In this document: positions 1-17,295 of the stretch, piece after piece | How the letters are laid out: every line of letters starts with the position of its first letter | How positions within the stretch are numbered: position 1 is the stretch's first letter | Position numbers and translations under genes: made by a program | Origin: Candidatus Electrothrix gigas | Lineage (GTDB): Bacteria > Desulfobacterota > Desulfobulbia > Desulfobulbales > Desulfobulbaceae | Direction: 5' to 3' | Assembly (NCBI GenBank): GCA_022766165.1 | Contig: QYLO01000035.1 | Location: forward strand, 1 to 24,000 | Length of the DNA stretch: 24,000 nucleotides | Notes under the pieces: model-generated | Told to the model about the DNA's origin: nothing | Databases searched by the model: none | Seen by the model: only the letters and a program-made list of their open reading frames with translations

Positions 1-1
1 G

Positions 2-112
2 GCAGGGCAGTCGCTCACGGGCACGGTGGAGAATCTGGCCGACCTGATCAGCCTGACACGGGACAACTACAGCGGCAGGCTGGTGGATGTCTTGGACATC
101 AGGATGACGTAG
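2..112 (+). CDS. 3' end of an upstream gene (partial, product unknown)
   Basis: The frame is open from the window edge and reads AGQSLTGTVENLADLISLTRDNYSGRLVDVLDIRMT*, with stop TAG at 110-112. A strong hairpin terminator follows at 170-204. The fragment is too short to assign a family. Confidence 0.35.
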   Translation, partial: AGQSLTGTVENLADLISLTRDNYSGRLVDVLDIRMT

Positions 113-169
113 GCGACTAAAGAGGAGAAGAGAGAGAGCAAGGTAAGACAGGTTGACAAGGCAAAGAAG

Positions 170-204
170 AAAAGCCCCAACCGATAAACTCGGAAGGGGC
201 TTTT
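170..204. terminator. Bidirectional intrinsic terminator between convergent genes
   Basis: Perfect 9-bp stem AAAAGCCCC (170-178) / GGGGCTTTT (196-204), with an inner 4-bp stem CCGA (181-184) / TCGG (190-193). It is T-rich on the + strand (TTTTAT). On the - strand it is followed by TTTTCTTCTTT, i.e. downstream of the PFOR stop. Confidence 0.7.
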
Positions 205-256
205 ATCAGGCTGCGTTATACGTTAGTAGCCTGTTTGGATGAAGCAAGAAGCGTTC

Positions 257-274
257 TTAGCTCTCTTAGCTCTC
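257..274. repeat. Perfect 9-bp tandem duplication TTAGCTCTC x2 spanning the PFOR stop codon
   Basis: Positions 257-265 and 266-274 are identical. On the minus strand this reads GAG AGC TAA GAG AGC TAA (E S stop, E S stop). Confidence 0.9.
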
Positions 275-3200
275 CTCAAGCGCCTTAAAGCGGCTCTGGA
301 GGAACTTCCAGCTCTTATCCACATCCTTCTGTGAAGCTTCCATCAGCTCATCGCACTGCTCAGGATTAGCCATCTTGAGCATCCGGTAACGGTTCTCGTT
401 CAGAGCATAGTCAGCAAATTTGATGGTCGGCTCTTTGGAGTCAATGATCAGCGGGTTCTTGCCCTCATCTTCCAGTTGCGGATTGTAGCGATACAGGGGC
501 CAATGTCCACAGGCAACCGCTTTCTTCTGCTGCTCCAGACCCATAGCCAGGTTCAGGCCGTGGTTGATGCAGTGAGCATAAGCAATAATGATGGACGGTC
601 CGTCATAAGCCTCGGCCTCGTTAAGAGCCTTAACCACCTGCTGCGGGTTGGCACCCAGAGCAATCCTGGCCACATAGACGTTACCATAGGTGGAGAAGAT
701 CATGCCCATATCTTTTTTAGCCATTTTCTTCCCACCAGCAGCAAACTGCGCCACAGCCGCACGCGGGGTAGACTTGGACATCTGACCACCGGTGTTGGAG
801 TAGACCTCAGTATCCAGAACCAGCACGTTGATGTTCTCACCAGACGCCAGAACGTGGTCCAGTCCACCGTAGCCGATATCGTAGGCCCAACCGTCGCCGC
901 CAAAGCACCAGACAGACTTCTTGACCAGGTAGTCAGCAACCGGCAGGAGGCGAGTAGCGGTGGTGCTGTTGCTGCCTGCCAGAGCAGCTTTTAGCTCCTC
1001 AACCCGAACACGCTGTGCTTCGATCTCATCCTGAGTTGTCTGGCTTGCATCCAACAGAGAATCTGCCAGCTCTTTACTGACCAGCCCTTCTTCAACAGCC
1101 AGTTCCAGCAGCTCTGCTGCCTGCATTCCCAGCTTGTTCACAGATTGGCGCATACCCAGACCGTACTCGGCATTGTCCTCAAACAGGGAGTTAGACCAGG
1201 AAGGACCGCGTCCGTCTTCACGCTGACAATACGGAGTGGTGGGCAGGTTACCGCCGTAGATGGAGGAACAACCGGTTGCATTGGCAACCATCAGACGATC
1301 ACCGAAAAGCTGAGTAACCAGCTTGATGTACGGGGTCTCACCACAACCTGCACAGGCTCCAGAGAACTCGAACAGGGGTCGCTTGAGCTGGCTGCCCTTA
1401 ACGGTTGCCGGGTTGATGGAGGCGTTATCCATCTCAGGCAGTGCCATAAAGGTCTTCCAGTTGGCCAGCGACTCGTTCAAGACCTCTTCGGTATTGGTGA
1501 TCATGGTCAGCGCAGACTCTTCGGTCTTGTTGCCTTCAGCATCTTTCTTGCGTGCCGGACAGGCAGTGGAACAGAGGGTGCAGCCTGCGCAGTCTGCTGT
1601 GGAGATCTGAACAGTGAACTTTTTACCCTTAAAATCTTTGCCATTGGCATCAGCGGTTTTAAAGCTCTCTCCTGCTCCTGCTGCTTGGAGATCTTCCTCA
1701 GAGGCAACCTTGATACGGATACAGCCATGCGGGCAGACCAGGGAGCATTTACCACACTGGATACAGGTTGCAGGAGACCATTCCGGTACTTTTACCGCAA
1801 TGTTCCGTTTTTCCCACTGGGTAGTGGCGGTGGGCCAGCGACCGTCAGCAGGCATCTCAGAGACCTTGATCTCCTCGCCCTTGCCTTCGATCATCTTAGC
1901 AGTTACTTCCTTAACAAACTCAGGAGCCTCAGCAGGTACGGTCGGCGGTAACTCATGCCCGGTGATCTTATCAGACAGAGTAACTTCAACGATGTTCTCC
2001 ACTGCTGCATCAACAGCATCGTAGTTCATGTTGACGATCTTGTCGCCTTTCTTGCCGTAGGTCTTCTTGATCGCAGTCTTGATCGCATCAATGGCCTCGT
2101 CTTTCTTGAGGATACCAGAGATCAGGAAGAAGGCGGTCTGCATGATCATGTTGATGCGTGCGCCCAGACCAATGGCTAGCCCCAGCTTAATTGCATCAAT
2201 GATGTAGAATTTGGCGTTCTTGTCAATGAGCTGCTGCTGCACCTTGGCCGGGAGATGATCCCAAACCGTGTCCTTGTCAAAGGTGGTGGTCAGCAGAAAG
2301 GTGCCGCCGTCTTCCAGATTAGCCAGCATGTCGTAGCTGTCCAGAAAGGTAAAGTTATGGCAGGCAATGAAACTGGCCTTGTTGATCAGGTACGGAGCAA
2401 CAACCTGGTTCTCACCAAAACGGAGATGAGACACGGTCATGGACCCGGATTTCTTGGAGTCGTAGACAAAATAGCCCTGCGCCGAGTTGTCTGTTTCAGT
2501 GCCGATGATCTTGATGGTGTTCTTGTTGGCACCCACCGTCCCGTCAGAACCCAGACCGTAGAACATGGCCCGATACACGTCGTTGCCTTCAATGTTGTAG
2601 GTCTTATCGTAGTCCAAAGAGGTGTGGGTTACGTCATCATTGGGACCAACACAGAAGTGATTTTTCGGAGCCAGAGCAGCCATGTTGTCGTACACAGCTT
2701 TCACCATAGCCGGGCTGAATTCCGCAGAACCCAGACCGTAACGACCGCCCAGTACCAGCGGCGTAATCATGGTTGGATTGGCTTCAGCAGCCTCACCTAA
2801 AGCAGCACGGACATCCAAGTACAGGGGATCACCGGGTGCGCCTGGTTCTTTGCAGCGATCCATAACCGTAATGCGTTCAACGCATGAGGGCAGAGCATTC
2901 ACCATAGCCTTCATGTCAAACGGACGGAACAGGCGAACAATAACCATACCCACCTTGCGGCCCTCTGCGACCAATTGGTCAATGGTGGCAGCAACCGTCT
3001 CTGCACCGGAACCCATGATCACAACAACGTCGGTTGCATCAGGTGCGCCGTAGTAATCAAAGAGGTTGTACTGACGACCAGTCAGGGCTGCGAATTTGTT
3101 CATGGTTTCTTGAACAATACCCGGCACCGCATTATAGTACTTGTTCACGGTCTCACGACCGGTGAAGTAAACATCTGGGTTCTGAGCTGTACCAGACATA

Positions 3201-3841
3201 GACGGGCGATCCGGGGTCAGGGCCCGCTCACGGTGTTCGGTGATCAGCTTCTCATCGATCATCTCCAGCATGTCTTCGTTGGTCAACTGCTCCATCTTCT
3301 GGATCTCATGAGAGGTGCGGAAACCGTCAAAGAAGTGGAGAAAGGGAATCCGTGAAGCCAGGGTGGCCTGAGTGGAGATCAGTGCCATATCCTGTGCTTC
3401 CTGAACATTCTGCGAGCAGAGTTGCGCCCAACCAGTCTGACGGGCGCTCATCACGTCGCCGTGATCGCCAAAAATAGACAGACCTTGGCAGGCAACAGAG
3501 CGGGCCGTAACATGGAAAACAGTTGGGGTCAACTCACCAGCCAGTTTGTACATGTTGGGCAGCATCAGCAACAGGCCCTGAGAAGCGGTAAAGGTGGTGC
3601 AGAGCGCACCAGTGGCCAAAGAGCCGTGCAGGGAGCCGGCAACACCGCCCTCGGACTGCATCTGAGAAATAACCGGTATTGAACCCCAGATATTTTTCTG
3701 CTTCGCAGTGGCCTTGGCATCCGCCTCAGCCGCCATCGGTGAAGAAGGAGTGATGGGGTAGATGGTGATGACTTCACTGGTGGCGTAGGCTACATGGGTA
3801 CATGCCTGATTGCCGTCAATGGTGACCATTTTTCGCGACAT
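266..3841 (-). CDS. por: Pyruvate:ferredoxin (flavodoxin) oxidoreductase, homodimeric single-polypeptide type
   Basis: 1191-aa ORF. The N-terminus MVTIDGNQACTHVAYATSEVITIYPITPSS, the GGVAGSLHGSL motif, the internal 2x[4Fe-4S] ferredoxin domain (CIQCGKCSLVCPHGCI ... CAGCTLCSTACP) and the TPP-binding GGDGWAYDIGYGGLDH motif are all classic NifJ/PFOR hallmarks. SD GGGAGA lies upstream of the ATG at 3841. Confidence 0.97.
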   Translation of the reverse strand: MSRKMVTIDGNQACTHVAYATSEVITIYPITPSSPMAAEADAKATAKQKNIWGSIPVISQMQSEGGVAGSLHGSLATGALCTTFTASQGLLLMLPNMYKLAGELTPTVFHVTARSVACQGLSIFGDHGDVMSARQTGWAQLCSQNVQEAQDMALISTQATLASRIPFLHFFDGFRTSHEIQKMEQLTNEDMLEMIDEKLITEHRERALTPDRPSMSGTAQNPDVYFTGRETVNKYYNAVPGIVQETMNKFAALTGRQYNLFDYYGAPDATDVVVIMGSGAETVAATIDQLVAEGRKVGMVIVRLFRPFDMKAMVNALPSCVERITVMDRCKEPGAPGDPLYLDVRAALGEAAEANPTMITPLVLGGRYGLGSAEFSPAMVKAVYDNMAALAPKNHFCVGPNDDVTHTSLDYDKTYNIEGNDVYRAMFYGLGSDGTVGANKNTIKIIGTETDNSAQGYFVYDSKKSGSMTVSHLRFGENQVVAPYLINKASFIACHNFTFLDSYDMLANLEDGGTFLLTTTFDKDTVWDHLPAKVQQQLIDKNAKFYIIDAIKLGLAIGLGARINMIMQTAFFLISGILKKDEAIDAIKTAIKKTYGKKGDKIVNMNYDAVDAAVENIVEVTLSDKITGHELPPTVPAEAPEFVKEVTAKMIEGKGEEIKVSEMPADGRWPTATTQWEKRNIAVKVPEWSPATCIQCGKCSLVCPHGCIRIKVASEEDLQAAGAGESFKTADANGKDFKGKKFTVQISTADCAGCTLCSTACPARKKDAEGNKTEESALTMITNTEEVLNESLANWKTFMALPEMDNASINPATVKGSQLKRPLFEFSGACAGCGETPYIKLVTQLFGDRLMVANATGCSSIYGGNLPTTPYCQREDGRGPSWSNSLFEDNAEYGLGMRQSVNKLGMQAAELLELAVEEGLVSKELADSLLDASQTTQDEIEAQRVRVEELKAALAGSNSTTATRLLPVADYLVKKSVWCFGGDGWAYDIGYGGLDHVLASGENINVLVLDTEVYSNTGGQMSKSTPRAAVAQFAAGGKKMAKKDMGMIFSTYGNVYVARIALGANPQQVVKALNEAEAYDGPSIIIAYAHCINHGLNLAMGLEQQKKAVACGHWPLYRYNPQLEDEGKNPLIIDSKEPTIKFADYALNENRYRMLKMANPEQCDELMEASQKDVDKSWKFLQSRFKALEES

Positions 3842-4312
3842 TGATAAATTCTCCCTTAATCGTGAGGTTAACGTGTTCCGGCAATTCTACCGGAAAATAT
3901 AATAAAAAGACTACAGTGTGATCTGTTCGTTCGGGTCTGGAGTGACATATTTCTTCAGCCTTGCGTCTGCTCAACATATTGCGCTGTGCCGGTTTCCATG
4001 ATACAACATAGAGATTTTCTGAGAGGTTGCCTGCCTTTGTTTGAAAGACTCTATTGAACACAATATCTTTGTAAAAGGGCAAAAGTTTATCATTATAGAA
4101 TATAATCGTCAACTATGCAATATTAAATCCGGTCGATACGAGAAGGACGGTAAGAAAGAAATCAGACAGGGCTATGGATTGCCTTTGAGATAGGACGTTG
4201 ATACTACTAGCTTACGGAGGGTGGATAGGGGATATTTTTATCGTAGGAATCCATCCCCCTCCCCCTCTGAAGGGAAAGAGGGAGGGATAGACTATTTGCC
4301 TTTTATTTGCTT

Positions 4313-5080
4313 TTATTTGTACTCGTCCAAATAAATCCAGAGAACAGCACCCAACTCAACACCTTTTTCCTGACCGTTCGGATCAGTAATCGTGTAATCA
4401 GCCTCATTCAGCGCTGCAAATCCCCACCAGCCTGCTTGAGGACAGGTAAAGGTAAATACCCCGTTATCATCAGCCTTAACTACCTGGGTGACATGGTATT
4501 CGCTCGGCGCTGTGAATTTTTTATCTTTATTGTACAGCTCTACTTCAACCTCTGCACCGGGAACCGGATCGCCATTCAGCAGAACTTGGCCGGAAAAGCT
4601 GTTGCCTGCATAGTTACCAAAAGGACGGGTAAGCGGAACAATCTCTGTGGCAATACCGACTGGCTCGTCCCAGCCCTGATCACCACCAAAGGCTGCGATC
4701 ATCGTCTTGGTGTAATGGATGATGGAGACATCCTCAGCCGGTTCCCAGTATGGGGTCGGCTCCATGACAAAGGTGTATACACCAGGGCGTTTAATGGGTA
4801 CCTCGGCTTTCCAGGCAGCACGATCCATTATATTGGTTGCCCTGAGCTTAGACAACAGATCGGTTGTTTGGCCGTCCTTAACCATGAAAAATTTCTTGGG
4901 TTTGTTCAAATTCATCCCAATCATTTCAAAGGGATGAGAAAAAGAGAGGTCAAGTGTAACACTCCTTTCTCTCGCTTCCAAAATGTTGTCCGAGGGGATA
5001 ACCATCCCAAAATGAGCAAGGGCCTCTCCGGTCATACAGGCAAGAAAGAGTGCAGCTACAGCAATGGCTTTCATCTTCAT
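4313..5080 (-). CDS. Periplasmic DUF4198 / NikK-like metal-binding protein (family assignment from memory)
   Basis: 255-aa ORF with SD AAGGAG 9 nt upstream of the ATG. It has a Sec signal peptide MKMKAIAVAALFLACMTGEALA, so the predicted mature N-terminus starts with His (HFGMVIP). Overall length and layout fit DUF4198 proteins annotated as the additional periplasmic component NikK of Ni/Co ECF transporters. Confidence 0.75.
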   Translation of the reverse strand: MKMKAIAVAALFLACMTGEALAHFGMVIPSDNILEARERSVTLDLSFSHPFEMIGMNLNKPKKFFMVKDGQTTDLLSKLRATNIMDRAAWKAEVPIKRPGVYTFVMEPTPYWEPAEDVSIIHYTKTMIAAFGGDQGWDEPVGIATEIVPLTRPFGNYAGNSFSGQVLLNGDPVPGAEVEVELYNKDKKFTAPSEYHVTQVVKADDNGVFTFTCPQAGWWGFAALNEADYTITDPNGQEKGVELGAVLWIYLDEYK

Positions 5081-5152
5081 CGTGAAATACTCCTTTTTTT
5101 ATCGTTAATCAGGTATTACTAAGTAATTATAACAACAGGAACCGATTATTCC

Positions 5153-5857
5153 TTATCCGTTTATCGACTTGTTTTTCTTCTTTTCTTGAAACCAGGCAAG
5201 GATACCAGTGAATCCGATAATACAGCCAATCCCTAAAAGGATATTCTGAATATTCGGTTTCTTATCTTGTGATTCTGCTAGTTTACGTTTAACAGGAAGT
5301 AGCTCCTTATTAACCTCTTGCCGAATCATTGCCCGTATACTCTCCATATCAATATTATCTATATTGAGCTGTTTTGTGTCCTGGGGAGAAGATGCTGCAT
5401 CTGGTACTTCCGATACTTCCGATACTTCCGATACTTCTGATGGTGCTGATTGTGCAGATGATGCAGAGGCTTCTACTGTTGATGCCGGAAGATACTCGTC
5501 TGCTGTCAGAAGCCATTCTCCACGATGACCATCACCTGCATTTACTGAGATCAAAAGATCTGACTTTTGCTTAACAGCCTGTTGAGGCGGGGCAAATTGA
5601 AATTTGCCTTGCTGGTCAGTTTTGGTTGTAAAGAGCAGAACAAGCGATTTGGCGTCTTGTACATGAACAGGGACATTTTTTGCTTTACGGCCACCGCTAA
5701 AGTATGTTTCTCCATATATCTGTTGATCACCTGACCAGCAAAAAACATTGAGCTTATGCGATTGAGCCTGTTGGGTAAAGGACAAAGAGAGTAGTGTAAA
5801 GAGTACCGTAAAGCGTACAGTAAAAAAAAGTACTGTGAGAGAAGGAGGTCGATTCAT
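5153..5857 (-). CDS. NikL-like periplasmic/membrane-anchored protein (signal peptide, beta-sandwich, C-terminal TM helix)
   Basis: The ORF track gives 5153..5908. I prefer the internal Met (MNRPPSLTVLFF...) at 5857, which yields a normal signal peptide ending AQS|HKLNVF. The carboxypeptidase-regulatory-like segment is VPVHVQDAKSLVLLFTTKTDQQGKFQF. An acidic SEVSEVSEVSEV linker and a C-terminal TM helix ILLGIGCIIGFTGILAWF follow. The start codon is uncertain, since there is no strong SD for either Met. Confidence 0.7.
   Translation of the reverse strand: MNRPPSLTVLFFTVRFTVLFTLLSLSFTQQAQSHKLNVFCWSGDQQIYGETYFSGGRKAKNVPVHVQDAKSLVLLFTTKTDQQGKFQFAPPQQAVKQKSDLLISVNAGDGHRGEWLLTADEYLPASTVEASASSAQSAPSEVSEVSEVSEVPDAASSPQDTKQLNIDNIDMESIRAMIRQEVNKELLPVKRKLAESQDKKPNIQNILLGIGCIIGFTGILAWFQEKKKNKSING
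5403..5438. repeat. 9-nt tandem repeat x4 (GATACTTCC-type) encoding (SEV)4 in the NikL-like gene
   Basis: GGTACTTCC GATACTTCC GATACTTCC GATACTTCT on the + strand. It is in-frame on the minus strand as SEVSEVSEVSEV. Confidence 0.9.
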
Positions 5858-6197
5858 TCTACCGCTTATTACAACCGGTACCGAAAGAATTTCTTTTGAA
5901 ATATGCATAACGCATTACCAGTAATATTTTTTTATTTTTTGTAATACTAAAAATTGTATTTACTGTACAGGAAATATTCTGTCAAGCCTTTTCATACGAT
6001 AGGTAAAGAGACCTAAAGAGAGAGGGGGGGGATATCGAAATCAAGAAGAGCAGGATAAGAAAAATCCAGGAAGAATTAATGCGTTAGAAAAATATTTCAA
6101 TGTGACTTGATATAACGATTGAAATTGTATATAAACATCTATTGTACTCACTCAGATATTTCATCAAGGACTTCACTCTGGCCGATAAAAAAATATA

Positions 6198-6225
6198 TTG
6201 ACAGTAAAAATATTACGGGTATCTT
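6198..6225 (+). promoter_or_regulatory. Candidate sigma70-type promoter upstream of the ferredoxin gene
   Basis: TTGACA (6198-6203), 16-nt spacer, TATCTT (6220-6225), in an AT-rich divergent intergenic region about 165 nt upstream of the ATG at 6390. Pattern match only. Confidence 0.3.
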
Positions 6226-6389
6226 TGCCCAAGTCAGTACTTATATGAAGAGTACCTCTTTCCTATCTTACGCCTCTTTTCAGAGGAAAAGTCAGGGGAG
6301 CTATTTGTCCATAATTAATCTTTAGTTTATTTTTAGTTTACTTAATTATAAAAAGGGCTCTGAGAGCCGCTAACAAGAAGGAGAAAGCT

Positions 6390-6575
6390 ATGTATGAAAT
6401 AGAAGTAGATAAAGACAAATGTACCGGTTGTGAAGAGTGTGTTGGTGCCTGTCCGGCAGGTGTTTTTGAGATTGTCGATGGAAAATCTTCCCCTGTAAAT
6501 GACGATGAATGTCTGGGTTGCGAAACCTGCGTTGAGGTTTGTGAGGTAGATGCCATCACTGTAACTGAATCCTAA
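6390..6575 (+). CDS. fdx: Small 2x[4Fe-4S] ferredoxin
   Basis: 61 aa with two cluster motifs, CTGCEECVGACP and CLGCETCVEVCE. Strong SD AAGGAG lies 7 nt upstream of the ATG. It is a plausible electron acceptor for the nearby PFOR. Confidence 0.9.
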   Translation: MYEIEVDKDKCTGCEECVGACPAGVFEIVDGKSSPVNDDECLGCETCVEVCEVDAITVTES

Positions 6576-6593
6576 AGATCGCAGTTGATGCAA

Positions 6594-6635
6594 GGGCAAC
6601 GGTTTTGTTGTTACATGTTTTCATGACCGTTGCCC
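6594..6635 (+). terminator. Possible hairpin downstream of ferredoxin
   Basis: 9-bp stem GGGCAACGG (6594-6602) / CCGTTGCCC (6627-6635), but with a long 24-nt loop and no following T-run. Confidence 0.3.
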
Positions 6636-6835
6636 AGTACTATCAAATACTCTTAAATATTATCAAGTATTTCCAGTATGATCTTTTGATGCTGAGGTCT
6701 AATCTTCGCTCTGCATACTCTTCTCTTTCTGATTTCTCCCCTCCCCTGTTTCAGTCTTTATTTCTTCTCTATTGCAGTACCGCAGCACCTTGCGTTGTAC
6801 TGTACTCATAATCAAACTTATTCGTGTTTTCATAC

Positions 6836-6868
6836 AAAAAGGGCACAAAGATTGAATCCCTGCGCCCT
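6836..6868 (-). terminator. Intrinsic terminator for the Cys-rich barrel protein gene
   Basis: The minus-strand RNA would fold as AGGGCGCA (from 6861-6868) / UGUGCCCU (from 6840-6847). That is 8 bp including one G-U, with a 13-nt loop, followed by U5 (the A-run at 6836-6840, whose innermost position 6840 also closes the stem). It lies about 80-110 nt downstream of the stop at 6950. Confidence 0.5.
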
Positions 6869-6949
6869 AAAAGCTCATCTAATATCAAAGGCATCGAATA
6901 CCCGCCGCTAGTTGCCTGCGAGTATAAAAATAAGTATTAAGCCGTCTCG

Positions 6950-8197
6950 TTAATACTGAAAACGTATCCCAATACCAAAGCGTCCATAATCAGAGATATC
7001 ACTGAGTTCATCAATAGCATTGCGCGCCTCTAAAAAGACTGAGGCGTTAAATTTGTCCGGTTCACCATACACACGAGCACCAACATTAAGTAATATATCT
7101 AAATCACTATCTTGATCATCAAAATCTTCGTCTCCTGCGCTGATCCAAGCGCCGAGTCCAAGTCCGACAAAACCATCAAAGGGATCTGAAAAGTTGTATT
7201 GAGCAATACCATCAAGCAACAGGGCACTGGCACCATCTTCGTCATCGTCACTCAGTTTAGGAGCAGAACCGATCATAAGTAAATAAGAGATATTCTCATA
7301 AGGTGTTCCTGCATAACGTGCTCTTGTATAAGGACTGTATTGAACACCTAAGCGGGCAAAGAGAAAATCTGCTGGATCACCAAGACGTAGATAACCGAGG
7401 TCACCGATAAAACGAAGATGTTGCGCTGTTGCTGTTGGCTTACGTGTTGGTTGTTGTGTTGGTTGTTGTGTTGGGATAAAATCATCATCAGAGCAATCAA
7501 GTTTTCGGCACTCGGGAGGACAGTCATCACAACTGATATCCTTGGGAAGGATCGGGTCTTCTTCTGGAATAACTGGATAATCTTCCGGAGTAATCGGGTC
7601 TTCTTCTGGTTCTTCTGGAATGATTGGATCTATTGGATATTCTTCTGGGATTGGAATATCTATTTCTTCGGAAAGACATTCCTCTGGTATATCCTGACAT
7701 GCAGTCGGACAATCTTCTTGATTATAAGACCCCTTTTTACAGGATGCTGGGCAGTCTGGAGGGAATTTATCACAGATATTGCAGCCCAGCTCATCACAGA
7801 CAGGCGGGCAGTCTTGTCCCTCTGGGTTTTCAATACATTCTACAGAGCAGTCATCACAGCTATAGCATTTTATGTCACGACATATATCGGGACAACCGTT
7901 GCCATAGGGGTTAATCTTGCAGTCCTCTGTACAATCCTCACATGATTGACAGGTAACATCACGACAAATATCAGGACAATCTATATCGTATGGATTTTGT
8001 CTACATCTGAATGAGCAGTCATCGCAGGATACCCGACATTCTGGATCTTTACAGACAGGCGGGCAGCCCTTGCTGTAAGGATTTTCTAAACATGCATCTG
8101 AGCAGTCGTCGCAGGTCATGACTCTGCCTCCAGCAAAGGCTACACCCGCCGACAGCAGAAGTAAAACAGTAACCCGTGTCAATACGTTCAGTTTCAT
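6950..8197 (-). CDS. Secreted Cys-rich repeat protein with Pro/Glu spacer and C-terminal small beta-barrel (outer-membrane anchor); family unknown
   Basis: The ORF track gives 6950..8233. I prefer the ATG at 8197 (MKLNVLTRVTVLLLLSAGVAFA), which has SD AAGGAG (8208-8213) 10 nt upstream. There are four regular 28-29 aa six-Cys repeats plus degenerate units. The C-terminal ~150 aa is Cys-free, has alternating hydrophobicity and ends GIGIRFQY. Confidence 0.8.
   Translation of the reverse strand: MKLNVLTRVTVLLLLSAGVAFAGGRVMTCDDCSDACLENPYSKGCPPVCKDPECRVSCDDCSFRCRQNPYDIDCPDICRDVTCQSCEDCTEDCKINPYGNGCPDICRDIKCYSCDDCSVECIENPEGQDCPPVCDELGCNICDKFPPDCPASCKKGSYNQEDCPTACQDIPEECLSEEIDIPIPEEYPIDPIIPEEPEEDPITPEDYPVIPEEDPILPKDISCDDCPPECRKLDCSDDDFIPTQQPTQQPTRKPTATAQHLRFIGDLGYLRLGDPADFLFARLGVQYSPYTRARYAGTPYENISYLLMIGSAPKLSDDDEDGASALLLDGIAQYNFSDPFDGFVGLGLGAWISAGDEDFDDQDSDLDILLNVGARVYGEPDKFNASVFLEARNAIDELSDISDYGRFGIGIRFQY
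7445..7474. repeat. 12-nt tandem repeat x2.5 (TGTTGGTTGTTG) encoding PTQQPTQQPT hinge
   Basis: Read directly: 7445-7456 and 7457-7468 are identical and 7469-7474 is a partial third unit. It lies in the linker between the Cys-rich part and the barrel. Confidence 0.85.
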
Positions 8198-8304
8198 AGT
8201 TCTTGCTCTCCTTTTCTGAGAAATTAATTTCATTGCCCGTGATTTCGGACGAACTGCATTCTACCTAAAGAAGAAAGGTAAAATTTTTTTTACTTTGTCT
8301 ATAT

Positions 8305-8333
8305 TATATATAAGCTCCTTGGTTTTCTGGCAA
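8305..8333 (-). promoter_or_regulatory. Candidate sigma70-type promoter for the Cys-rich barrel protein gene
   Basis: On the minus strand: TTGCCA (8333-8328), 17-nt spacer, TATATA (8310-8305, overlapping TATAAT). It is about 100 nt upstream of the ATG at 8197. Pattern match only. Confidence 0.3.
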
Positions 8334-8919
8334 CAGAAAAAAAACAACCTATAGCTCCATTTTCCTGAAAAATGGGAACAGGGCAGTGAAAAATGCATTG
8401 TTGTAACATTTTTGGCATTAGGCTTGAATGATCAACACAGGGGCATGGAGAATCCAATTTGTTTGAATAGTTGCTATGGTTTTTTTAGGAAAAAATGTAG
8501 GTTCTGACAGGTTCTGAGCGGATACTTTGTCAGCATTGATAAGATTGTTTATACTGTACAGTATTTTATATTGGGTTCTATTTTTTTTATAGTTGCTTTC
8601 AGGAGAATAACTTGCTGATTTTTTTACCTGTACAGGCAGTGTAGTACAGAATAACTGTCTCGTAGGGATCAATTCTTGAAGAATGTTGAATTTATTTGAC
8701 AAATTTAAGTTTTTTATTTTATACTTAGGTTCTTTTTTATTAAAAGTGTTTGGTAGCGATTATTGCCGTATAATAACTCTCGTCCCTCGTAACTGAGAAG
8801 GTGAGAAGGGATGGTTTTATACAGGACCCTCTCTCATATTTTGTTGACCCGACCCAAGGGCCAGGATGGGGGTATAGAAGGGGATAGAAAAAAGAATATT
8901 GAATCCTAAAAAATTCTAA

Positions 8920-9231
8920 GCAAGCCTCTCCGTCAATACTAATCGTTCTCGTGGGATTTTCAAGTTCAGCCAACTGAAAAAACGAAACAGGTGTGTTCTT
9001 GATGAAAGGCAGAGACTTGAATGGATAGCCTTGAAAAAAGGTTGTCGTGTGGTGATAAACACCGAAGAATATACCAGTAAAACGCATCCGCAAACTGGTG
9101 TGGTGAACAGGAAACTTGGTAGTGCAAAAACTGTCAAGTTGACTGATGGGTCAAGAGCTTGCAGAGATATAGTAGGTGCTTTCAATTTCTTTTTGAAAAC
9201 GCTTGTGGTAGATACACCCACCTTTAATTAG
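8920..9231 (+). pseudogene. C-terminal remnant of an IS200/IS605- or IS607-associated TnpB (RuvC-II/III region), degenerate
   Basis: The frame is open from the stop at 8917-8919 and reads ...RQRLEWIALKKGCRVVINTEEYTSKTHPQTGVVNRKLGSAKTVKLTDGSRACRDIVGAFNFFLK... This matches the TnpB tail pattern (Y/W)KA..G..VV.V.E.YTS(K/Q)TC..CG...C..C...DRD.N(G/A)A.NI. The four Zn-finger Cys are replaced (THPQTG, KLTDGSRA) and no N-terminal 300 aa is present. Confidence 0.5.
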
Positions 9232-9270
9232 GTGCAACTTATAACTATTTATAAGAAAAAAAGTATCGGA
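9005..9270 (+). repeat. Copy A (full, 266 bp) of TnpB-tail/right-end-derived repeat, ending 13 nt before the operon start codon
   Basis: 9005-9080 matches 21886-21961 (74/76 identical) and 9212-9270 matches 21961-22019 (59/59 identical). The right block contains hairpins CACCT-ttaatt-AGGTG and CTTATAA-ctat-TTATAAG (9238-9255). Confidence 0.9.
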
Positions 9271-9283
9271 TAAGAGCTGTTCA

Positions 9284-11116
9284 ATGAAAAAAGTATTGTT
9301 GGTAGATGACGATGAAATGATCCATGAAATCGTGGACTCTACTCTGGGTAGCTACAAGAAGTCTTTTGAGATATCACATGCCTACGATATAAAAGAGGCT
9401 GTTAGGCAAATAGATAGAGGAGATATTGCTCTTGTTATCACCGATCTTGTTATGCCCGGGGGAGACGGTTTTCAGCTGTTATCCTATATTCAAAAAAAAC
9501 ACTCTGATATACCAAGAATCGTTATAACTTCCTACGACCTTCCTGAGCTGAAGAATCGGCTCGCAGGCAAGGCATTTCAGGTTTTTAAAAAACCTTTGGC
9601 TTCTGAAGAACTTGCCGACGCAATTATACAAGGTCTCAAAACGCAGCAAAAAAAAGGGGATCTTGGAAAATTTTCTGTTGTCGGTATAGTGCAACTGATG
9701 GAAACAGAAGAGACCACCTGTCGTCTTGATGTGCATAACTGCGATGAACATCAGGATATTGATCATTGTATAGAGCATAACTGTCCTGAGTACAAGGGAA
9801 GTCTTTTTCTCGTTAAAGGCAAAATTTACGATGCTGTTTGCGGAAAGCTAATTGGCGAAGAGGCCGTGCTCAAATTACTCAGTTTGGAAGGAGTTCAGGT
9901 CAGCAGTTGCACATTGAAAAATGATGTACTCAGAAGGGTGCATAAAAGCAACCAGAATCTGTTGATCAATGCAATGATTCAGAAAGATAATCAATCTGAT
10001 GACCCTGCATCGACTGGATCACCCCGACAAAAACTTCTTGATGAAGGCATTAAACTCTGTGAACGACTGGAACTCAACAAGGCTCAAAAGAAGCTTATGT
10101 CCTTTGTTCGCGATAATCGTAAAAGTGCGCTGGGTTGGCTTTGGCTCTCCCGTTCCTTAACCGATCTGCCAAAAATTAAAAAGGCACTGGGTGAGGCATA
10201 TAAATGTTCACCTAAAGATCCTCAGATTCTCGAAGATGTAAAAAAAGCACGTCTCTTTCAAGGAAGCGGAAAACTTATTCGTTGCCCTTTCTGTTTTGCC
10301 CCACTGGAACAGCATATCATACTTTGCTCGTATTGTCAGGCAAACGCCCTCTCAAATTCCTCAACCCTAGCGCAAATTGATCCGTACAAGGTTGAACGGA
10401 AAGTTGTGCTGCGAGCTGCTACACGTTTTGAACGTTTGCTGGCTGATGAAGTCAATCCGAGACTGCTGTACTATGCCGGGGCAGCGTATCTCAATTTAAA
10501 TGATTTTGAAAAGGCATTGACCTATTTTGATCTTCTGATGCCTATTGTTCAGGTTGACAAGAAGTTGCAAAAAATTTCCAAACAGGTTCGTGAAATAGTT
10601 GACTATATTGCCTCAAGCCAAAATATGGACACTGATGATAGGGCAAAGAATAGTTGGCATGAGCAAAAGGAAAAAAGAGAAAAACGTTTAATTACAAATC
10701 GTTCAGCTTGTAAAACAGTTTTGGTTGTCGAAGACAGCCCGACCACCAGAAAGGTTATTAAAATGACGCTGACCAGCGGTGATTTTCGCGTCATTGAAGC
10801 TGCCGATGGTGTTGAGGCATTGAGTAGATTAAATGAAGAACGACCAGATCTTGTCCTGCTTGATATTATGCTGCCAAAGATTGATGGATATCGTATACTC
10901 TCTATTTTGAAAAAAAATAGTGATACGAAAGATATACCAGTTGTTATGTTGACAAGTAAAAATAGAATAATTGATAAGGTGAAGGGGAGGCTGTCCGCAG
11001 CCAGTGCGTACCTGACAAAGCCGTTTAAACCTGCTGAACTTATTGACATGGTCAATACGATTATCGTGAAAGATAGCGCAAGGGCTGAACACTCAACTGA
11101 AAACACAGTTAATTGA
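9284..11116 (+). CDS. Dual-receiver response regulator: REC - PATAN/DUF4388 - TPR-like region with CxxC-x10-CxxC zinc ribbon - REC (PatA/PilG-like)
   Basis: 610 aa. REC1 has DDDE, ITDLVMPGGDG, ITSY and FKKP. The DUF4388 signature is GDLGKFSVVGIVQLMETEETTCRLDV...GSLFLVKGKIYDAVCGKLIGEEAVLKLL. The zinc ribbon is CPFCFAPLEQHIILCSYC. REC2 has VVEDSP, LLDIMLPKIDG, MLTSK and YLTKPF. Confidence 0.9.
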   Translation: MKKVLLVDDDEMIHEIVDSTLGSYKKSFEISHAYDIKEAVRQIDRGDIALVITDLVMPGGDGFQLLSYIQKKHSDIPRIVITSYDLPELKNRLAGKAFQVFKKPLASEELADAIIQGLKTQQKKGDLGKFSVVGIVQLMETEETTCRLDVHNCDEHQDIDHCIEHNCPEYKGSLFLVKGKIYDAVCGKLIGEEAVLKLLSLEGVQVSSCTLKNDVLRRVHKSNQNLLINAMIQKDNQSDDPASTGSPRQKLLDEGIKLCERLELNKAQKKLMSFVRDNRKSALGWLWLSRSLTDLPKIKKALGEAYKCSPKDPQILEDVKKARLFQGSGKLIRCPFCFAPLEQHIILCSYCQANALSNSSTLAQIDPYKVERKVVLRAATRFERLLADEVNPRLLYYAGAAYLNLNDFEKALTYFDLLMPIVQVDKKLQKISKQVREIVDYIASSQNMDTDDRAKNSWHEQKEKREKRLITNRSACKTVLVVEDSPTTRKVIKMTLTSGDFRVIEAADGVEALSRLNEERPDLVLLDIMLPKIDGYRILSILKKNSDTKDIPVVMLTSKNRIIDKVKGRLSAASAYLTKPFKPAELIDMVNTIIVKDSARAEHSTENTVN

Positions 11117-11155
11117 AAGCTTACAACTTCCATCCAAAATAAAAGAGGAGAAACT

Positions 11156-11524
11156 ATGTCTACGAGAAAATTACTGATTGTTGACGATAGTCCAACAGAA
11201 CTCAAGTTGATAACCGATGTGTTTAATACATCTGAATATGATGTTGTTACTGCTGAAGACGGTGAAGCTGGTGTAGAAATGGCAATAGCAGAAAAACCAG
11301 AGTTGATCATTCTTGACGTTGTTATGCCAAAAATGAATGGGTTCCAAGCGTGTCGCAAAATTAAATCCCTTCCCGACTTAGAGAATATACCAGTTATCTT
11401 GCTGACCAGCAAAAATCAAAAATCAGATGAATTTTGGGGAAAAAAACAGGGCGCAGATGTCTATCTGACAAAACCTTTTCATGCCGATCAGGTACTGGAG
11501 GCTGTAACCGGTCTTCTTTCTTGA
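11156..11524 (+). CDS. cheY: Single-domain CheY-like response regulator (PilH/PixH-like)
   Basis: 122 aa with IVDDSP, ILDVVMPKMNG, LLTSK and YLTKPF. Strong SD AGAGGAGA. Confidence 0.93.
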   Translation: MSTRKLLIVDDSPTELKLITDVFNTSEYDVVTAEDGEAGVEMAIAEKPELIILDVVMPKMNGFQACRKIKSLPDLENIPVILLTSKNQKSDEFWGKKQGADVYLTKPFHADQVLEAVTGLLS

Positions 11525-11567
11525 TCTTTTACATTATTTCTTCATGTAAAAAACAAGGCGTGACGAT

Positions 11568-12185
11568 ATGAACGATCAAGCCGCTCTTTTTCCCAGTACC
11601 TCTCCTGAGGTTACAGAGGGTACAGACCTTGCAGAGCTGTTAGGTAATATTGATCAGGAGATAATGCAAGTCGCACTCAAGTACGGCGATGGCTTAAAAA
11701 AGATTGCTGGCGATAATCAGCAAGAACTTGGAAGGCATATATGCTTTGACTTGGGCAACAGGCGACTGGCCTTACCTCTCTCCTTTGTCGTTGAAGTAGG
11801 AGAGTTGGAGGATGTACGCTCACTCCCCTTTTTACCTGAGTGGGTACAAGGTGTAACCAACATACGGGGAGAAATCGTCTCTGTCACCGATATAGCTCTT
11901 TTTTTTAATATTCCAACAGAACAGCACAGAAAAAAGGGTCGTACATTTATTATCATTTATAACGGTGAAGTAAAAACCGCAGTGGTTGTTGATCGTATCG
12001 CTACCACGCGCATGTTATACAAAAAAGAGGGGGCTGCGCAGCATGATACAGAGGACGACAAAGGGGAACAGAGTGGTCTATCCAATTTTTTACTTGGTTC
12101 AGCTCTGTATCATACTGGTGAAAGAGAAGAAGTTGTCCAGCTTTTTGACGGTGAACAGTTACTCTCATCTATAAAAATATCATAA
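11568..12185 (+). CDS. cheW: CheW-like coupling protein (PilI-like) with ~55-aa N-terminal extension
   Basis: 205 aa. CheW fold signature: HICFDLGNRRLALPLSFVVEVGELEDVRSLPFLPEWVQGVTNIRGEIVSVTDIALFF ... TFIIIYNGEVKTAVVVDRI. Confidence 0.9.
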   Translation: MNDQAALFPSTSPEVTEGTDLAELLGNIDQEIMQVALKYGDGLKKIAGDNQQELGRHICFDLGNRRLALPLSFVVEVGELEDVRSLPFLPEWVQGVTNIRGEIVSVTDIALFFNIPTEQHRKKGRTFIIIYNGEVKTAVVVDRIATTRMLYKKEGAAQHDTEDDKGEQSGLSNFLLGSALYHTGEREEVVQLFDGEQLLSSIKIS

Positions 12186-12206
12186 CAAGCAGCTTGGAGA
12201 GAGTAG

Positions 12207-15200
12207 ATGACGAGTAGTGTAGGCAATGAGATTATAACAGGGTTTATTGAGGAGGTAGAAGGATATCTGCCTGATATGAGCCGTTGCCTTCAGACCCTGC
12301 AGCAGGATCGTATCCATAGACCATCGTTAGCCGAGTTGCACCGAATCACTCATACCATCAAGGGTGCCGCCGCTATGGTAGGGCTAGATGACCTGAGTGC
12401 TTTTGGTGAACTGCTTGAAAAAGTGATGGAAGATATTCTCGGCTCTTCTTTGGAGGTAGATGATGAGATGCTTCATCTCTTGCAAGACGCAACCCAGCAT
12501 ATTGCCCAGTACTGCGTCATGCAACATGAGGAGCAACATGAGGAAAATGAAGGAAGAACTCATGACAGTCGCCTTTTCCTACAACTTATTAAGACCCTTG
12601 AAGAGAAGCTTAACAGCACTGAATTTGCTGAATCTGCCCAATCTGGTGCAAGGACCAATCCTGAGAATATTTTTTTTGATAACGTAGCAGAGGAAAATGT
12701 TGCAGGAGATACGCAGGCTAGTCAGGAGAGCAACAGCGTAGATGATCTTTTTGCTGACCTTGATGCCGACTTTGAACCGGAGCCATCTGGCATCGAAGAC
12801 TCTTTCTGTGATCCTGACATTGAAAGTATTTTTGATAAAATTCCTCCAGCAACTTCACAGACACCGCTCTTCGCTGAAACAGAGGATGAGAGCGAGTCAA
12901 CAGCATCTCAGACAGCATTAATTGATCCAGAACTCTTGGAGTGCTTTCGAGAGGAAACAGAGGAACATCTGGAGAATATTGACCGTTGCCTAGATGAGCT
13001 TACCAACCAAATAACCAATCCTGTTGCACTCACTCCGCCCACCCAAGAAACACTTCATTCCCTGCGTCGTTCTGTACATACGCTCAAAGGTGCAGCAGCC
13101 GTTATCGGCATAGAACAGATTGCGGCCTGGGGCCATGATTTTGAAGATTTTCTTGACTGGCTACATGACGAGGCAAAACGGCTTGATCCTACAACAGTGG
13201 CCGCTCTACGGGACGGAGCTGATCTGCTGGCCTCCCTTGCTGACAATCCTGGCGTATCCATTGAAAAAGATAAGCAAAGGATTCTTGCAAAGTTCAATGA
13301 TATTACCAAAAAAATGCGTCCTACAGTATCACTTTCACCTGGAACAGGTAATACGTTGGCAGATGATGTAACGGCACCCTCTGCGGCCTCCTTTCTCTTT
13401 GAAGAAACTGATGAGAAAAAATCTGAAGAGACAGACAGTTTTTTTGATGCGTTTACTACCGATACAACCTCTGCGACCGATACTGAGGAAGAGGATCTCT
13501 TTTTTCAGGATGTTGAAGAAAAGGAGGAGGATGATTTTTTTAGCTCCATAGCAGCAGAGAGTGGAAACTCTGAGACTGTGGATGAGTACGAGCAAGAGAA
13601 TATTGATGAAGAACTGCTGCAATGTTTTCATGAAGAGGCTAAAGAACATCTTGATAATCTTGATCGTCAGCTCAATCATCTCAATGTAACGATTTCTGAT
13701 AAGGTAGCACTGAATGATTTTAGAAGAGGAACACTGCACTCTATCCGACGGTCTGTTCATACGCTCAAAGGTGCAGCAGCCGTTATCGGCATAGAAAAGA
13801 TTGCGGCTTGGGGCCATGATTTTGAAGATTTTCTTGATTGGCTACATGATGAGGCACAGAGTATACACCCTGATATTGTTCAGGTAATGCAGGAAGCCAC
13901 TGATATCCTTGTTCGGCTTGTTGAAGACCCAACGTGTTCAGTTATTCGCGCTCAACACACTGTTCAGGAAGAATTTCAACGAATTACAGCAAAGAAAGAA
14001 GAGAGTAAACACGTATTACCAGATACATTACCAGATACATTACCAGATGCATTACCAGATGCTCTTGAAAAAAATCTTGAGGAAAAGGCAACAACTGCTC
14101 CTGTTCAGCAGCAACGAAAAAAATCCGCAACTCTACGAACTCTCCGTGTTGATGTGAACAGGGTTGATCAGTTAGTTGGTTTAAGCGGAGATATGGTTAT
14201 TAACCTGAGTAGTTTTGAGGACTCAATGGATACCATGTCTGGAACAACAAAAGAGTTGGATATGATTCTGCAACGTTTAAAGAATATCAACTCCAGCTTA
14301 GAGGCAGGATATGAACTGGCCTCAATCCCTCATCTTGGCAGTTCAGAAGATGGTCAGGATTCTGATATGGTTGAAGATTTTGACCCTCTGGAGATGGACA
14401 GGTATTCAGAACTAAATATTTTGATCCGTTCGCTCACTGAGGCGGTCAGTGACCTTGATTCGATCATGGGACAAAATGCCTTGGACACAGCCAGTTGGCA
14501 AAAAACGATTGAGCATCAGGGCATGATCCTGAAAGATCTGCAGAACAGGATGATGGGCATCCGCATGACGCCTTTTTCTACCCTATCAAGCAGGATGCAC
14601 AGGACAGTGCGAGAAGCAGAGCGCACAACCGGACATCCGGCCCAGTTAACTATTGAGGGTGAATCCATCATGATGGATACTCGTGTTTGGGAGGTTATGG
14701 CTGATCCCCTCATGCACATTCTTCGTAATGCAGTTGCTCATGGTGGCAGCTTGCCTCAAAAAGGCAGGGGAAAGGGCGAAGATGACAGCGAAGGACTTTC
14801 TATTACAATACAGGCTCGCAGAAAGGGTGGGTTATGTATTCTTCAGGTCAGTGATACCGGGAAAGGATTGGATTATCAGGCTATTCGGATCAAGGGCATG
14901 AAGTTGTACCCCAATGAACGGGTCAACCTTATGAGCGATAGTGAACTGGCAGATTTGATCTTTCGGCATGGCTTTTCAAGTACCGGTGCAATAACCAATA
15001 TCGCAGGTCGGGGTGTGGGTATGGATGTTGTTCGGGATGCGGTCGACCAACTTAACGGTTCTATTGAGCTTATTTCAGAGCAAGGTCAAGGAACTGCATT
15101 TATTATGCGTCTTCCTGTTGCTGTTGCCCAGCTTCCAGCTATTCTGGCTCGTTTTGGAAACCAGGTATATGCAATTCCGATGCATGATGTTGCAAGCGTT

Positions 15201-15971: not shown

Positions 15972-16002
15972 CCATCCCCATAATCTTACCTAACTAAAAA
16001 AA

Positions 16003-16800: not shown

Positions 16801-16805
16801 GAACC

Positions 16806-16816
16806 AAAAAAAAAAA
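16806..16816 (+). repeat. A11 homopolymer at the junction of two chemosensory genes (candidate slippage site)
   Basis: Eleven consecutive A residues, read directly. They lie between an SD-preceded ATG (16790) in one frame and the CheW-domain ORF in the -1 frame. Confidence 0.95.
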
Positions 16817-16836
16817 TACATACTGTTTCTCTGTCG

Positions 16837-17295
16837 TTGCCTGCTGAACAGATCCAGGGAAAGAGTCCGGTTCTCCTCTTGACAGCCAGCCAAATTGACG
16901 AAGTCCTTGCAGATGTTGAAATTCAGATGTTGCCCTTTGCCGCAGAGTATCTTCTTGGTCTCTGTGCCTGGCGAGAGAACGTCCTACCGATTATAGATCT
17001 TGTTTCATTTTTTGGCATGATTCCAACACAAAAAAAAGAGGACGCACGGTATGTGGTCGTGCGAACAGTTGATAAAAATAAAAAGGATGTTCGCATGATC
17101 CTTCGCTGTGTTCTGAAAGTCTCGGATCATATTATCAGTGGAGAGAGTCCCACAGACTGCAAAGCTGTGTTGCCAAAACAGGCAGGTTTGCAGGCAGGTT
17201 TTGCCCCAATTTTTGTCAGAGGACTTTTTCAAAGAGAGAAAGAGTTGTTTATTCTCCCTGATATTGCGGCAATATTACATTCAAATTCAACGTAA
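16837..17295 (+). CDS. cheW: CheW-like coupling protein (start uncertain: TTG 16837, or ATG 16790 plus -1 frameshift)
   Basis: CheW signature: SPVLLLTASQIDEVLADVEIQMLPFAAEYLLGLCAWRENVLPIIDLVSFFG ... RYVVVRTVD ... ILRCVLKVSDHI ... LFILPDIAAIL. The first in-frame conventional start is a TTG with no SD. See the finding on the A11 tract. Confidence 0.8.
   Translation: MPAEQIQGKSPVLLLTASQIDEVLADVEIQMLPFAAEYLLGLCAWRENVLPIIDLVSFFGMIPTQKKEDARYVVVRTVDKNKKDVRMILRCVLKVSDHIISGESPTDCKAVLPKQAGLQAGFAPIFVRGLFQREKELFILPDIAAILHSNST

Follow-up and report, generated by a model that had tools for sequence, protein, structure and literature searches.

A cysteine-repeat array joined to a predicted outer-membrane barrel in cable bacteria

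Eight-stranded outer-membrane barrels of the OmpA/OmpX type keep both termini in the periplasm and have no pore through which a passenger could be exported. Twin-CX3C proteins, such as the small Tim proteins of mitochondria and the alpha-hairpinins of plants, are closed by two ladder disulfides, and the reduced twin-CX3C motifs of small Tim proteins bind zinc. The protein described here shows likenesses to both. It is a Cys-repeat outer-membrane protein encoded in a 24,000-nucleotide stretch of the cable bacterium Candidatus Electrothrix gigas (assembly GCA_022766165.1, contig QYLO01000035.1, positions 1 to 24,000 of the forward strand; hereafter the window).

Cable bacteria carry current over centimetre distances through periplasmic fibres with a nickel-dithiolene framework, which hold about 18 million nickel atoms per cell. 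The accessible literature names neither a fibre protein nor a periplasmic partner for nickel or sulfur, and one homology-based screen stated that it had failed to find a periplasmic nickel-binding candidate. Sulfur-to-nickel ratios of 11.6 for the skeleton, 7.3 for the fibres and 3-4.6 for the nickel ribbons have been reported, sulfur-rich peptides being assumed (Meysman 2025). Abundant protein disulfide bridges have been proposed to account for the high sulfur content of the fibre sheath and its resistance to sodium dodecyl sulfate (SDS) and ethylenediaminetetraacetic acid (EDTA) (Boschker 2021). We found no analysis of the Cys-repeat protein in the accessible literature; its annotation reads only hypothetical or "beta-barrel domain-containing".

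The longest open reading frame (ORF) over the gene (6950..8233, reverse strand, 427 residues) exceeds the coding sequence given in Table 1. The true start is the internal ATG, because all orthologs begin MKLxVL and a Shine-Dalgarno AAGGAG lies 8-10 nt upstream. All 34 Cys fall within residues 29-235, leaving none in the last 180 residues. A regular expression applied to the protein returned exactly four matches to C-x2-C-x3-C-x8-C-x3-C-x4-C, with 3, 2 and 2 residues between successive units. A sequence-only reading of the window had described a Sec-exported protein with 34 Cys, none of them in its anchor, arranged in four such units each followed by two residues and a looser fifth, then a Pro/Glu spacer, the CDDCPPECRKLDC motif, a PTQQPTQQPT hinge and a GIGIRFQY end. 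The signal peptide can be seen in the sequence, the Cys count is correct and every listed element is present; only the two-residue spacing is not uniform. The likening of the spacer to TonB holds for composition only.

Table 1. Coordinates of the Cys-repeat gene, its parts and neighbouring features in the window
Feature	Position	Strand	Remarks
Cys-repeat outer-membrane protein, complete coding sequence	6950..8197	-	415 residues plus stop; ATG start at 8197, not 8233
Shine-Dalgarno AAGGAG	8208..8213	-	8-10 nt before start codon; read from sequence
Sec-type signal peptide MKLNVLTRVTVLLLLSAGVAFA	8132..8197	-	predicted cleavage between AFA and GG; no lipobox, no twin-arginine motif; peptide and site judged by eye
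Cys core, residues 28-175 (148 residues)	7673..8116	-	30 Cys, pI ~4, five repeat units
Unit 1 CDDCSDACLENPYSKGCPPVCKDPEC, residues 29-54	8036..8113	-	regular expression
Unit 2 CDDCSFRCRQNPYDIDCPDICRDVTC, residues 58-83	7949..8026	-	regular expression
Unit 3 CEDCTEDCKINPYGNGCPDICRDIKC, residues 86-111	7865..7942	-	regular expression
Unit 4 CDDCSVECIENPEGQDCPPVCDELGC, residues 114-139	7781..7858	-	regular expression
Unit 5, residues 142-174	7676..7774	-	symmetric variant C-x6-C-x3-C-x9-C-x3-C-x6-C
Pro/Glu-rich spacer, residues 176-222	7532..7672	-	imperfect 21-bp tandem repeat; AlphaFold2 confidence (pLDDT) <50
Remnant of sixth unit CDDCPPECRKLDC, residues 223-235	7493..7531	-	4 Cys; ortholog comparison
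Acidic PTQQ hinge, residues 236-261	7415..7492	-	12-bp unit, 2.6 perfect copies
Predicted C-terminal 8-stranded beta-barrel, residues 262-415	6953..7414	-	Cys-free; acidic loops; beta-signal-like GIGIRFQY end
Terminator-like hairpin	6840..6868	-	13 bp stem, then T-run; ~80 nt past stop codon
2x[4Fe-4S] ferredoxin	6390..6575	+	opposite strand, between Cys-repeat gene and nik genes
nikL	5153..5908	-	NCBIfam NF058648, 157 bits (cutoff 100)
nikK (DUF4198)	4313..5080	-	83% identity to the E. aestuarii gene inside its nikMLKQ cluster

The core is about 20% Cys, has acidic CDDC/CEDC motifs and a pI near 4. It is kept as a block of 148 residues with exactly 30 Cys in some 20 orthologs at 44-93% identity, the Cys positions being invariant or nearly so; the regularity of the repeat is not due to chance. 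Across both cable-bacterium genera 57 of the 148 core columns are invariant, 27 of them occupied by residues other than Cys; a Tyr is conserved in most units, and a Pro and an Asn in each. The ratio of nonsynonymous to synonymous substitution rates (dN/dS) is 0.03-0.14 for the core and for the barrel, with synonymous sites near saturation. The gene is thus under strong purifying selection. The four canonical units have 11-15 of 26 residues in common and only 54-68% DNA identity, and Tandem Repeats Finder confines the DNA-level repeats of the gene to the linker (spacer and PTQQ hinge). On these grounds the Cys units are old duplications and the linker repeats recent ones. In the ortholog alignment spacer and hinge occur only in the proteins of E. 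gigas and "Desulfobulbus sp. TB", as expected of recent, lineage-specific expansions, and the hinge differs in length among E. gigas strains. In most orthologs a full six-Cys unit (CDDCPPECEDNPYAKGCPAECQELDC) stands where the window protein has its four-Cys remnant. The linker as a whole spans 18-87 residues among orthologs, with 85-87 in E. gigas and 24 in strain YB6, so that the earlier suggestion of an array held at a fixed distance from the membrane does not hold.

The core matched nothing in Pfam, NCBIfam or the PDB by sequence, and nothing in the PDB by structure. The best sequence-profile match in the PDB, poxvirus A16/OPG143 (E 0.05), was set aside as Cys-composition noise. The full protein had no Pfam or NCBIfam match at E <=10 save a sub-threshold PT-repeat in the hinge. 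The repeat was rightly placed outside the named families by the sequence-only reading, and the array appears to be a bacterial Cys-repeat domain new to described families.

A homolog search returned 31 proteins, of which the full-length Cys-rich ones that carry an organism name all come from cable bacteria (Ca. Electrothrix, Ca. Electronema and the early "Desulfobulbus sp." single-filament genomes). A C-terminal fragment 100% identical to the window protein belongs to Ca. Electrothrix sp. AS4_5, an E. gigas genome, and a cluster at 93% identity is annotated Ca. Electrothrix gigas. The barrel alone, used as query in a word-index search, retrieved fragments only. An exhaustive profile search with the Cys core through 1.84 billion representative proteins matched family members only, apart from one chance HMMER hit (P0040), which was rejected as a eukaryotic protein with EGF/DSL-like repeats. 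When GTDB was scanned with one genome per species, the Cys-rich form (30-37 Cys, 3-5 canonical units by regular expression) was confined to Electrothrix, Electronema and three or four unclassified Desulfobulbaceae metagenome-assembled genomes (MAGs) with sequences and synteny of Electrothrix or Electronema type.

The barrel is more widespread. Homologous barrels joined to another N-terminal domain, marked by "IGRxPFHxPPL" followed by a weak PKD-like domain and holding 1-7 Cys, occur in Desulforhopalus, Desulfopila, Desulfofustis, Desulfotalea and related MAGs, and as paralogs in cable bacteria. Hybrids also exist, in which this N-terminal domain is followed by a Cys-rich region and the barrel. 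One of them, in E. aarhusensis MCF (H206_05481, L026 1851-3650), has 600 residues and 57 Cys in a larger, differently spaced Cys region; others are P0024, P0025 and a gene in locus L025. In Electronema sp. TJ hybrid and canonical gene are adjacent, with nearly identical barrels. In a neighbour-joining tree of barrels the Cys-rich forms make up one clade, sister to the N-domain paralogs of cable bacteria and nested within the wider Desulfobulbales family. By this nesting and the restricted distribution, the Cys module arose within the cable-bacterium lineage and was added there to a barrel anchor of greater age.

The gene is expressed in both genera and its protein has been detected. The ortholog of Electronema (En.) aureum GS, CAK8722701.1, reaches 1608 transcripts per million (TPM) and an intensity-based absolute quantification (iBAQ) value of 1.67e7 (Plum-Jensen 2026, PMC13293266, Data Supplement 2); for scale, dsrA stands at 1746 TPM in the same study, and the E. 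communis RB ortholog, WLE97771.1, has an iBAQ of 1.3e6 (PMC13293266). Given the proteome data and the dN/dS values above, a spurious or decaying gene is ruled out. The protein is missing from the published core-gene list, for which Roary clustered genes at a 50% identity cutoff (PMC13293266). Orthologs of the two genera are 44-49% identical, and the clustering threshold, together with the automatic "beta-barrel" name, probably explains the absence. In En. aureum a "protein-disulfide isomerase" (CAK8720654.1) stands at about the 12th place by iBAQ, and the proteome includes DsbC as well (PMC13293266), an unusual prominence of oxidative-folding proteins for a member of a sulfate-reducer family.

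The C-terminal barrel postulated in the sequence-only reading is borne out by structure prediction. In the full-length AlphaFold2 model eight beta-strands have pLDDT (predicted local distance difference test) values of 84-95, the core 80-91 and the linker below 50. Foldseek matched the barrel to eight-stranded outer-membrane barrels with probability 1.00 and a target-normalised TM-score of about 0.6: the OprF N-terminal barrel, OmpA, OmpW, OmpX and PagL scored E 4e-5 to 5e-4, the best hit being 4rlc (OprF-N, E 3.6e-5) and others 1qjp (OmpA), 2f1t, 2m06 and 2erv. Curated barrel models, such as OMP_b-brl and OmpA_membrane of Pfam, gave no Pfam or NCBIfam match even at E <=10. Residues 262-415 are accordingly modelled as an eight-stranded barrel of the OmpA/OprF/OmpX kind. 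The aromatic C-terminus taken earlier as a sign of barrel insertion is found in the window protein and not conserved: the final residue of orthologs is Y, H, R, Q, L, M or F, and it is the Phe at position -2 that is nearly invariant.

If the chain is threaded with its N-terminus in the periplasm, three of the four external loops measure 11-12 residues and two of the three periplasmic turns 3-5 (DSSP of the AlphaFold2 model). These lengths, the even number of strands, the beta-signal-like C-terminus and the want of a lumen for a passenger together argue strongly that the Cys array most likely lies in the periplasm and not on the cell surface. An autotransporter was considered and rejected, as eight strands are predicted instead of 12, and the reference structures 3aeh and 1uyn match at E ~1e-2 with TM-scores <=0.24. 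One predicted external loop (window 7052-7160, residues 347-382) is very acidic, with a GDxDxDSxDSDLD motif conserved across the Desulfobulbales family, and might bind divalent cations at the cell surface.

Predicted without metal, the core alone folds with pLDDT 89 and a predicted TM-score (pTM) of 0.66, the arms of the units appearing as short helical turns. Every unit type of every family member has in common the element CX3C-loop(6-13)-CX3C. The two arms of a unit never differ in their number of Cys (2+2, 3+3 or 4+4), and the Cys of one arm mirror those of the other in their distance from the loop: (7,4,0|0,4,9), (11,4,0|0,4,11) and (11,8,4,0|0,4,7,11). Over 30 orthologs the Cys count of the mature N-terminal region is always even (30, 34, 36 or 44), including changes that are not multiples of six. 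The sequence-only reading had left the choice between a disulfide-knotted module and a thiolate-rich metal array. The mirror symmetry of the arms and the even counts lead us to favour a disulfide ladder; the evidence leans towards stapling, with metal binding as the second possibility, and would fit the proposal of Boschker (2021) cited above.

Starting from the architecture, the predicted barrel, the lineage restriction, the purifying selection and the expression, we infer the orientation, the disulfide ladder and the partner of the protein as follows. The precursor would be exported by Sec and lose its signal peptide, after which the last 154 residues would enter the outer membrane as an eight-stranded OmpA/OmpX-type barrel. 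The 148-residue array would then project into the periplasm, held by a tether that is flexible, acidic, rich in Pro and of species-dependent length. Its five units (six in most species), of 26-33 residues, would each form a short helical hairpin with the invariant CX3C-loop-CX3C core and one further Cys per arm, most likely closed by three ladder disulfides (C3-C4, C2-C5 and C1-C6). The product would be a rigid, very acidic module resisting detergent and chelators. Strong conservation extends beyond Cys to other residues of the surface, so the array probably touches a particular periplasmic partner that only cable bacteria possess, most plausibly the fibre/ridge compartment directly beneath the outer membrane. 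We favour this account tentatively: a cable-bacterium-specific, expressed outer-membrane protein whose periplasmic, disulfide-stapled array likely contacts a periplasmic partner is, taken as a whole, a little short of probable.

Several points weigh against it. The ladder is argued from the sequence, and AlphaFold2 folds metal sites well without their metal, so a confident model does not discriminate. Disulfides in the periplasm may be lost in that part of the filament which lies in sulfidic, reducing sediment. The Cys counts take four states, a small number and one not independent of phylogeny, which makes their even parity weak evidence, and the range of linker lengths argues against precise spacing. 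No operon partner is conserved: the gene has nik neighbours in Electrothrix, an sdhC-like neighbour in the majority of Electronema and others in En. aureum. The moderate abundance in the proteome is below that of a major structural protein, though cross-linking and a scarcity of trypsin sites would lead to under-detection. The location at the fibres or ridge, finally, is one that we infer.

The genomic neighbourhood bears on the first alternative, that of a metal binder. All Electrothrix loci with sufficient flanking sequence share one order, in which the Cys-repeat gene is followed by a ferredoxin encoded on the opposite strand and then by nikM, nikL, nikK, nikQ, pgp where present, and nifJ; the ferredoxin between the Cys-repeat and nik genes is kept in all Electrothrix loci examined. 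The same conserved neighbourhood was described by Hiralal (2024), with one gene labelled "hyp." that may be the Cys-repeat gene. In the window the nickel importer of the energy-coupling factor (ECF) type is incomplete (3841-6950): nikK and nikL stand alone, nikM, nikQ and the pgp/HAD gene being absent with no detectable remnant, in agreement with the rearrangement of the E. gigas nik genes described in Hiralal 2024. In Electronema the nik genes do not adjoin the Cys-repeat gene. The genes upstream of the ortholog also differ, being a 204-residue membrane protein in E. aestuarii, an M16 peptidase in strain YB6 and a MoCF_biosynth-domain gene in En. aureum, which excludes a co-transcribed operon partner. 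As the Electronema nik genes lie elsewhere and neighbours differ, the nickel linkage is a genus-level synteny and not a conserved operon; a check of synteny, as proposed with the sequence-only reading, thus finds the nik neighbourhood in one genus and not in the other.

A thiolate metal binder, in which reduced Cys and neighbouring Asp/Glu would bind Ni(II), Cu or Zn as a buffer, store or chaperone feeding NikMLKQ or the assembly of the fibre cofactor, is unlikely in our judgement, and it is the rival with most in its favour. The 20% Cys of the core, its CDDC/CEDC motifs and its pI near 4 suit such a role, as does the position of the gene next to fd-nikM-nikL-nikK-nikQ in every Electrothrix locus examined (nikL-nikK in the window), in a neighbourhood noted as conserved (Hiralal 2024). 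The fibres hold their millions of nickel atoms per cell with no periplasmic nickel-binding candidate reported, and copper and sulfur co-localise in the cartwheels of the cell junctions. The same Cys geometry could hold a four-Cys site, and part of the filament is under reducing conditions. Against this, the nik linkage is limited to one genus and absent in Electronema; within that genus an opposite-strand ferredoxin separates the gene from nik, and the gene has its own terminator. The mirrored arms and strictly even Cys count are what pairing predicts, the conserved Tyr, Pro and Asn and the confident metal-free fold are unlike metallothioneins, and the whole protein has a single His.

More improbable is a structural part in the conduction machinery, with the array acting, by way of Cys-S links, as an outer-membrane-anchored scaffold rich in disulfides and thiolates on which Ni-bis(dithiolene) nanoribbons, or the Cu/S-rich cartwheel of the junctions, would be capped, nucleated or fastened. 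It would also contribute to the "excess" protein sulfur of the fibre skeleton and to its resistance to SDS and EDTA. A lineage-specific, 20% Cys protein anchored in the outer membrane and predicted to face the periplasm agrees with what the published sulfur-to-nickel ratios and the Cys-capped oligomer models lead one to expect. The link of the protein to the Ni/S fibres is circumstantial. A narrower version, to which we give still less credence, makes the array an anchor or nucleator whose Cys are joined to the terminal sulfurs of the Ni(ett) oligomers by S-S or S-Ni bonds and fasten the ribbons to the outer-membrane ridge. In published models the oligomers do end in Cys-type S-S links, and possible Cys termini have been named as the source of an extra Raman band and of a shoulder in X-ray absorption near-edge structure (XANES) spectra; the protein is restricted to the sole lineage making the cofactor, faces the right compartment by prediction and is expressed. 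The case is nonetheless purely circumstantial, abundance is moderate, and disulfides that were all intramolecular would leave no Cys free.

Surface display, as an adhesin, an anchor for a surface layer or sheath, or a mineral-binding module, is very unlikely. Disulfide-rich repeats are common in extracellular proteins, a putative surface layer has been described for cable bacteria, and strain YB6 has extracellular sheaths; yet eight contiguous C-terminal strands put the N-terminus on the periplasmic side, eight-stranded barrels are without an export pore, and no 12-stranded barrel of the autotransporter type is predicted. Fe-S clusters or heme, the former among the options of the sequence-only reading, are unlikely in a protein with a Sec-type signal peptide, one His and, in a search of its sequence, neither CXXCH nor a twin-arginine RR motif. 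An array of Fe-S clusters, or a polysulfide/persulfide carrier for periplasmic sulfur metabolism, strikes us as scarcely credible, for all the Cys density, the sulfide-oxidising habit of the organism and the adjacent ferredoxin gene, since a Sec-type and not Tat-type signal precludes co-export of a cytoplasmically assembled cluster, the spacing is unlike the CX2CX2CX3C motifs of ferredoxins, the neighbouring ferredoxin is cytoplasmic and on the other strand, and the protein is absent from published surveys of sulfur metabolism.

On balance the observation made from the letters stands and its interpretation is partly supported: no confident match to a characterised family was found for the Cys core, and of the two options offered the disulfide module is the one preferred. 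The cable-bacterium context changes the meaning of the finding.

The gene looks monocistronic, with the terminator-like hairpin at 6868-6840 following its stop codon. A contig of 1220 bp from Logan SRR27356120 (L065) holds the En. aureum ortholog alone, with 83 nt upstream and 12 nt downstream; it is transcript-like and consistent with a monocistronic mRNA. An antisense ORF (7418-7945, forward strand), whose reading CCCW... mirrors the Cys codons, is not a gene. Rfam and tRNA scans of the window came back empty.

The roughly 1 kb upstream of the gene (8234-9283) contains no convincing gene. A 66-residue ORF there (9031-9231, forward strand) has a weak, below-cutoff match (E 4e-5) to the TnpB/Cas12f TNB domain and is probably a decayed remnant of an IS200/IS605-type TnpB. 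A large chemosensory cluster occupies 9284-21734 and 23199-23984. It encodes a PatA-type (DUF4388) double response regulator with TPR, CheY, CheW, a second CheW-like protein, a 1254-residue CheA with three Hpt domains, a 1029-residue dCache-HAMP methyl-accepting chemotaxis protein and a periplasmic binding protein, with a PilJ-N-like ORF on the other strand. PatA_N regulators are also found upstream of the ortholog in locus L005. GC content falls from about 53% over the PFOR (nifJ) gene (1-4000) to 38-40% from nikL to the Cys-repeat gene (5000-9000).

In most Electronema loci (L005, L007, L015-L017, L021, L025) a stand-alone gene for a cytochrome b of the sdhC b558 family (TIGR02046, 117 bits) lies next to the Cys-repeat gene or its hybrid paralog and is transcribed away from it. 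In En. aureum GS the divergent gene (L018, 8260-9285) is the molybdopterin-binding MoCF_biosynth one. Molybdopterin is itself a dithiolene; as a partner this neighbour was rejected, since it is not beside the gene in other loci with the upstream region available.

What recommends the protein for further work is the coincidence of traits: it is exclusive to the lineage, constrained, expressed in both genera, predicted to face the fibre compartment, 20% Cys in its core, whose fold is without known relatives, and, in Electrothrix, encoded beside the nickel importer. It is a testable candidate for the protein part of the conductive machinery, and if the fibre-scaffold reading were true the fibres themselves would for the first time be linked to a gene. 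Were it only a disulfide-stapled strut of the envelope, it would still represent a new bacterial Cys-repeat domain and a clear case of a lineage-specific module grafted on an older outer-membrane anchor.

How the protein compares with known systems is best seen part by part. With the transmembrane domain of OmpA, the N-terminal domain of OprF, OmpX, OmpW and PagL it shares the predicted eight antiparallel strands, the beta-signal-like C-terminus and the polar interior. Relative to OmpA the order of domains is reversed, the barrel being C-terminal and the soluble module N-terminal, and relative to known eight-stranded barrels its loops are conserved and very acidic, as in GDxDxDSxDSDLD; the barrel escapes the Pfam and NCBIfam barrel models. 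The barrels of the Desulfobulbales "IGRxPFHxPPL" proteins (e.g. P0027 and P0030 from Desulforhopalus) are homologous at 35-48% identity, and these proteins are the evolutionary parents of the family; they differ in their 1-7 Cys, in their weak PKD-like middle domain and in not being restricted to cable bacteria. Among outer-membrane-anchored elements that likewise project into the periplasm, namely Lpp, the C-terminal domain of OmpA, peptidoglycan-cross-linked barrels and the TonB rod, the resemblance is one of layout: the Cys-repeat protein has no OmpA_C or peptidoglycan-binding domain. The Pro/Glu stretch is like the TonB rod in composition, with no N-terminal anchor and no TonB_C match, and most orthologs are without it.

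For the array, metallothioneins and bacterial Cys-rich metal sponges offer a similarly high Cys content and the same CxxC and CxxxC motifs; here, by contrast, the units are regular, of about 28 residues with conserved Tyr, Pro and Asn, are predicted to be helical without metal, and belong to an acidic, Sec-exported protein. Another likeness is to the twin-CX3C hairpins of mitochondrial small Tim proteins and plant alpha-hairpinins, which have the same CX3C-loop-CX3C on facing short helical arms. That likeness comes without sequence homology or a structural match in the PDB. The loop in the Cys-repeat protein spans 6-13 residues, each arm carries an extra Cys, and the units are fused five to six times in tandem in what would be a bacterial, periplasmic and membrane-anchored version of the hairpin.

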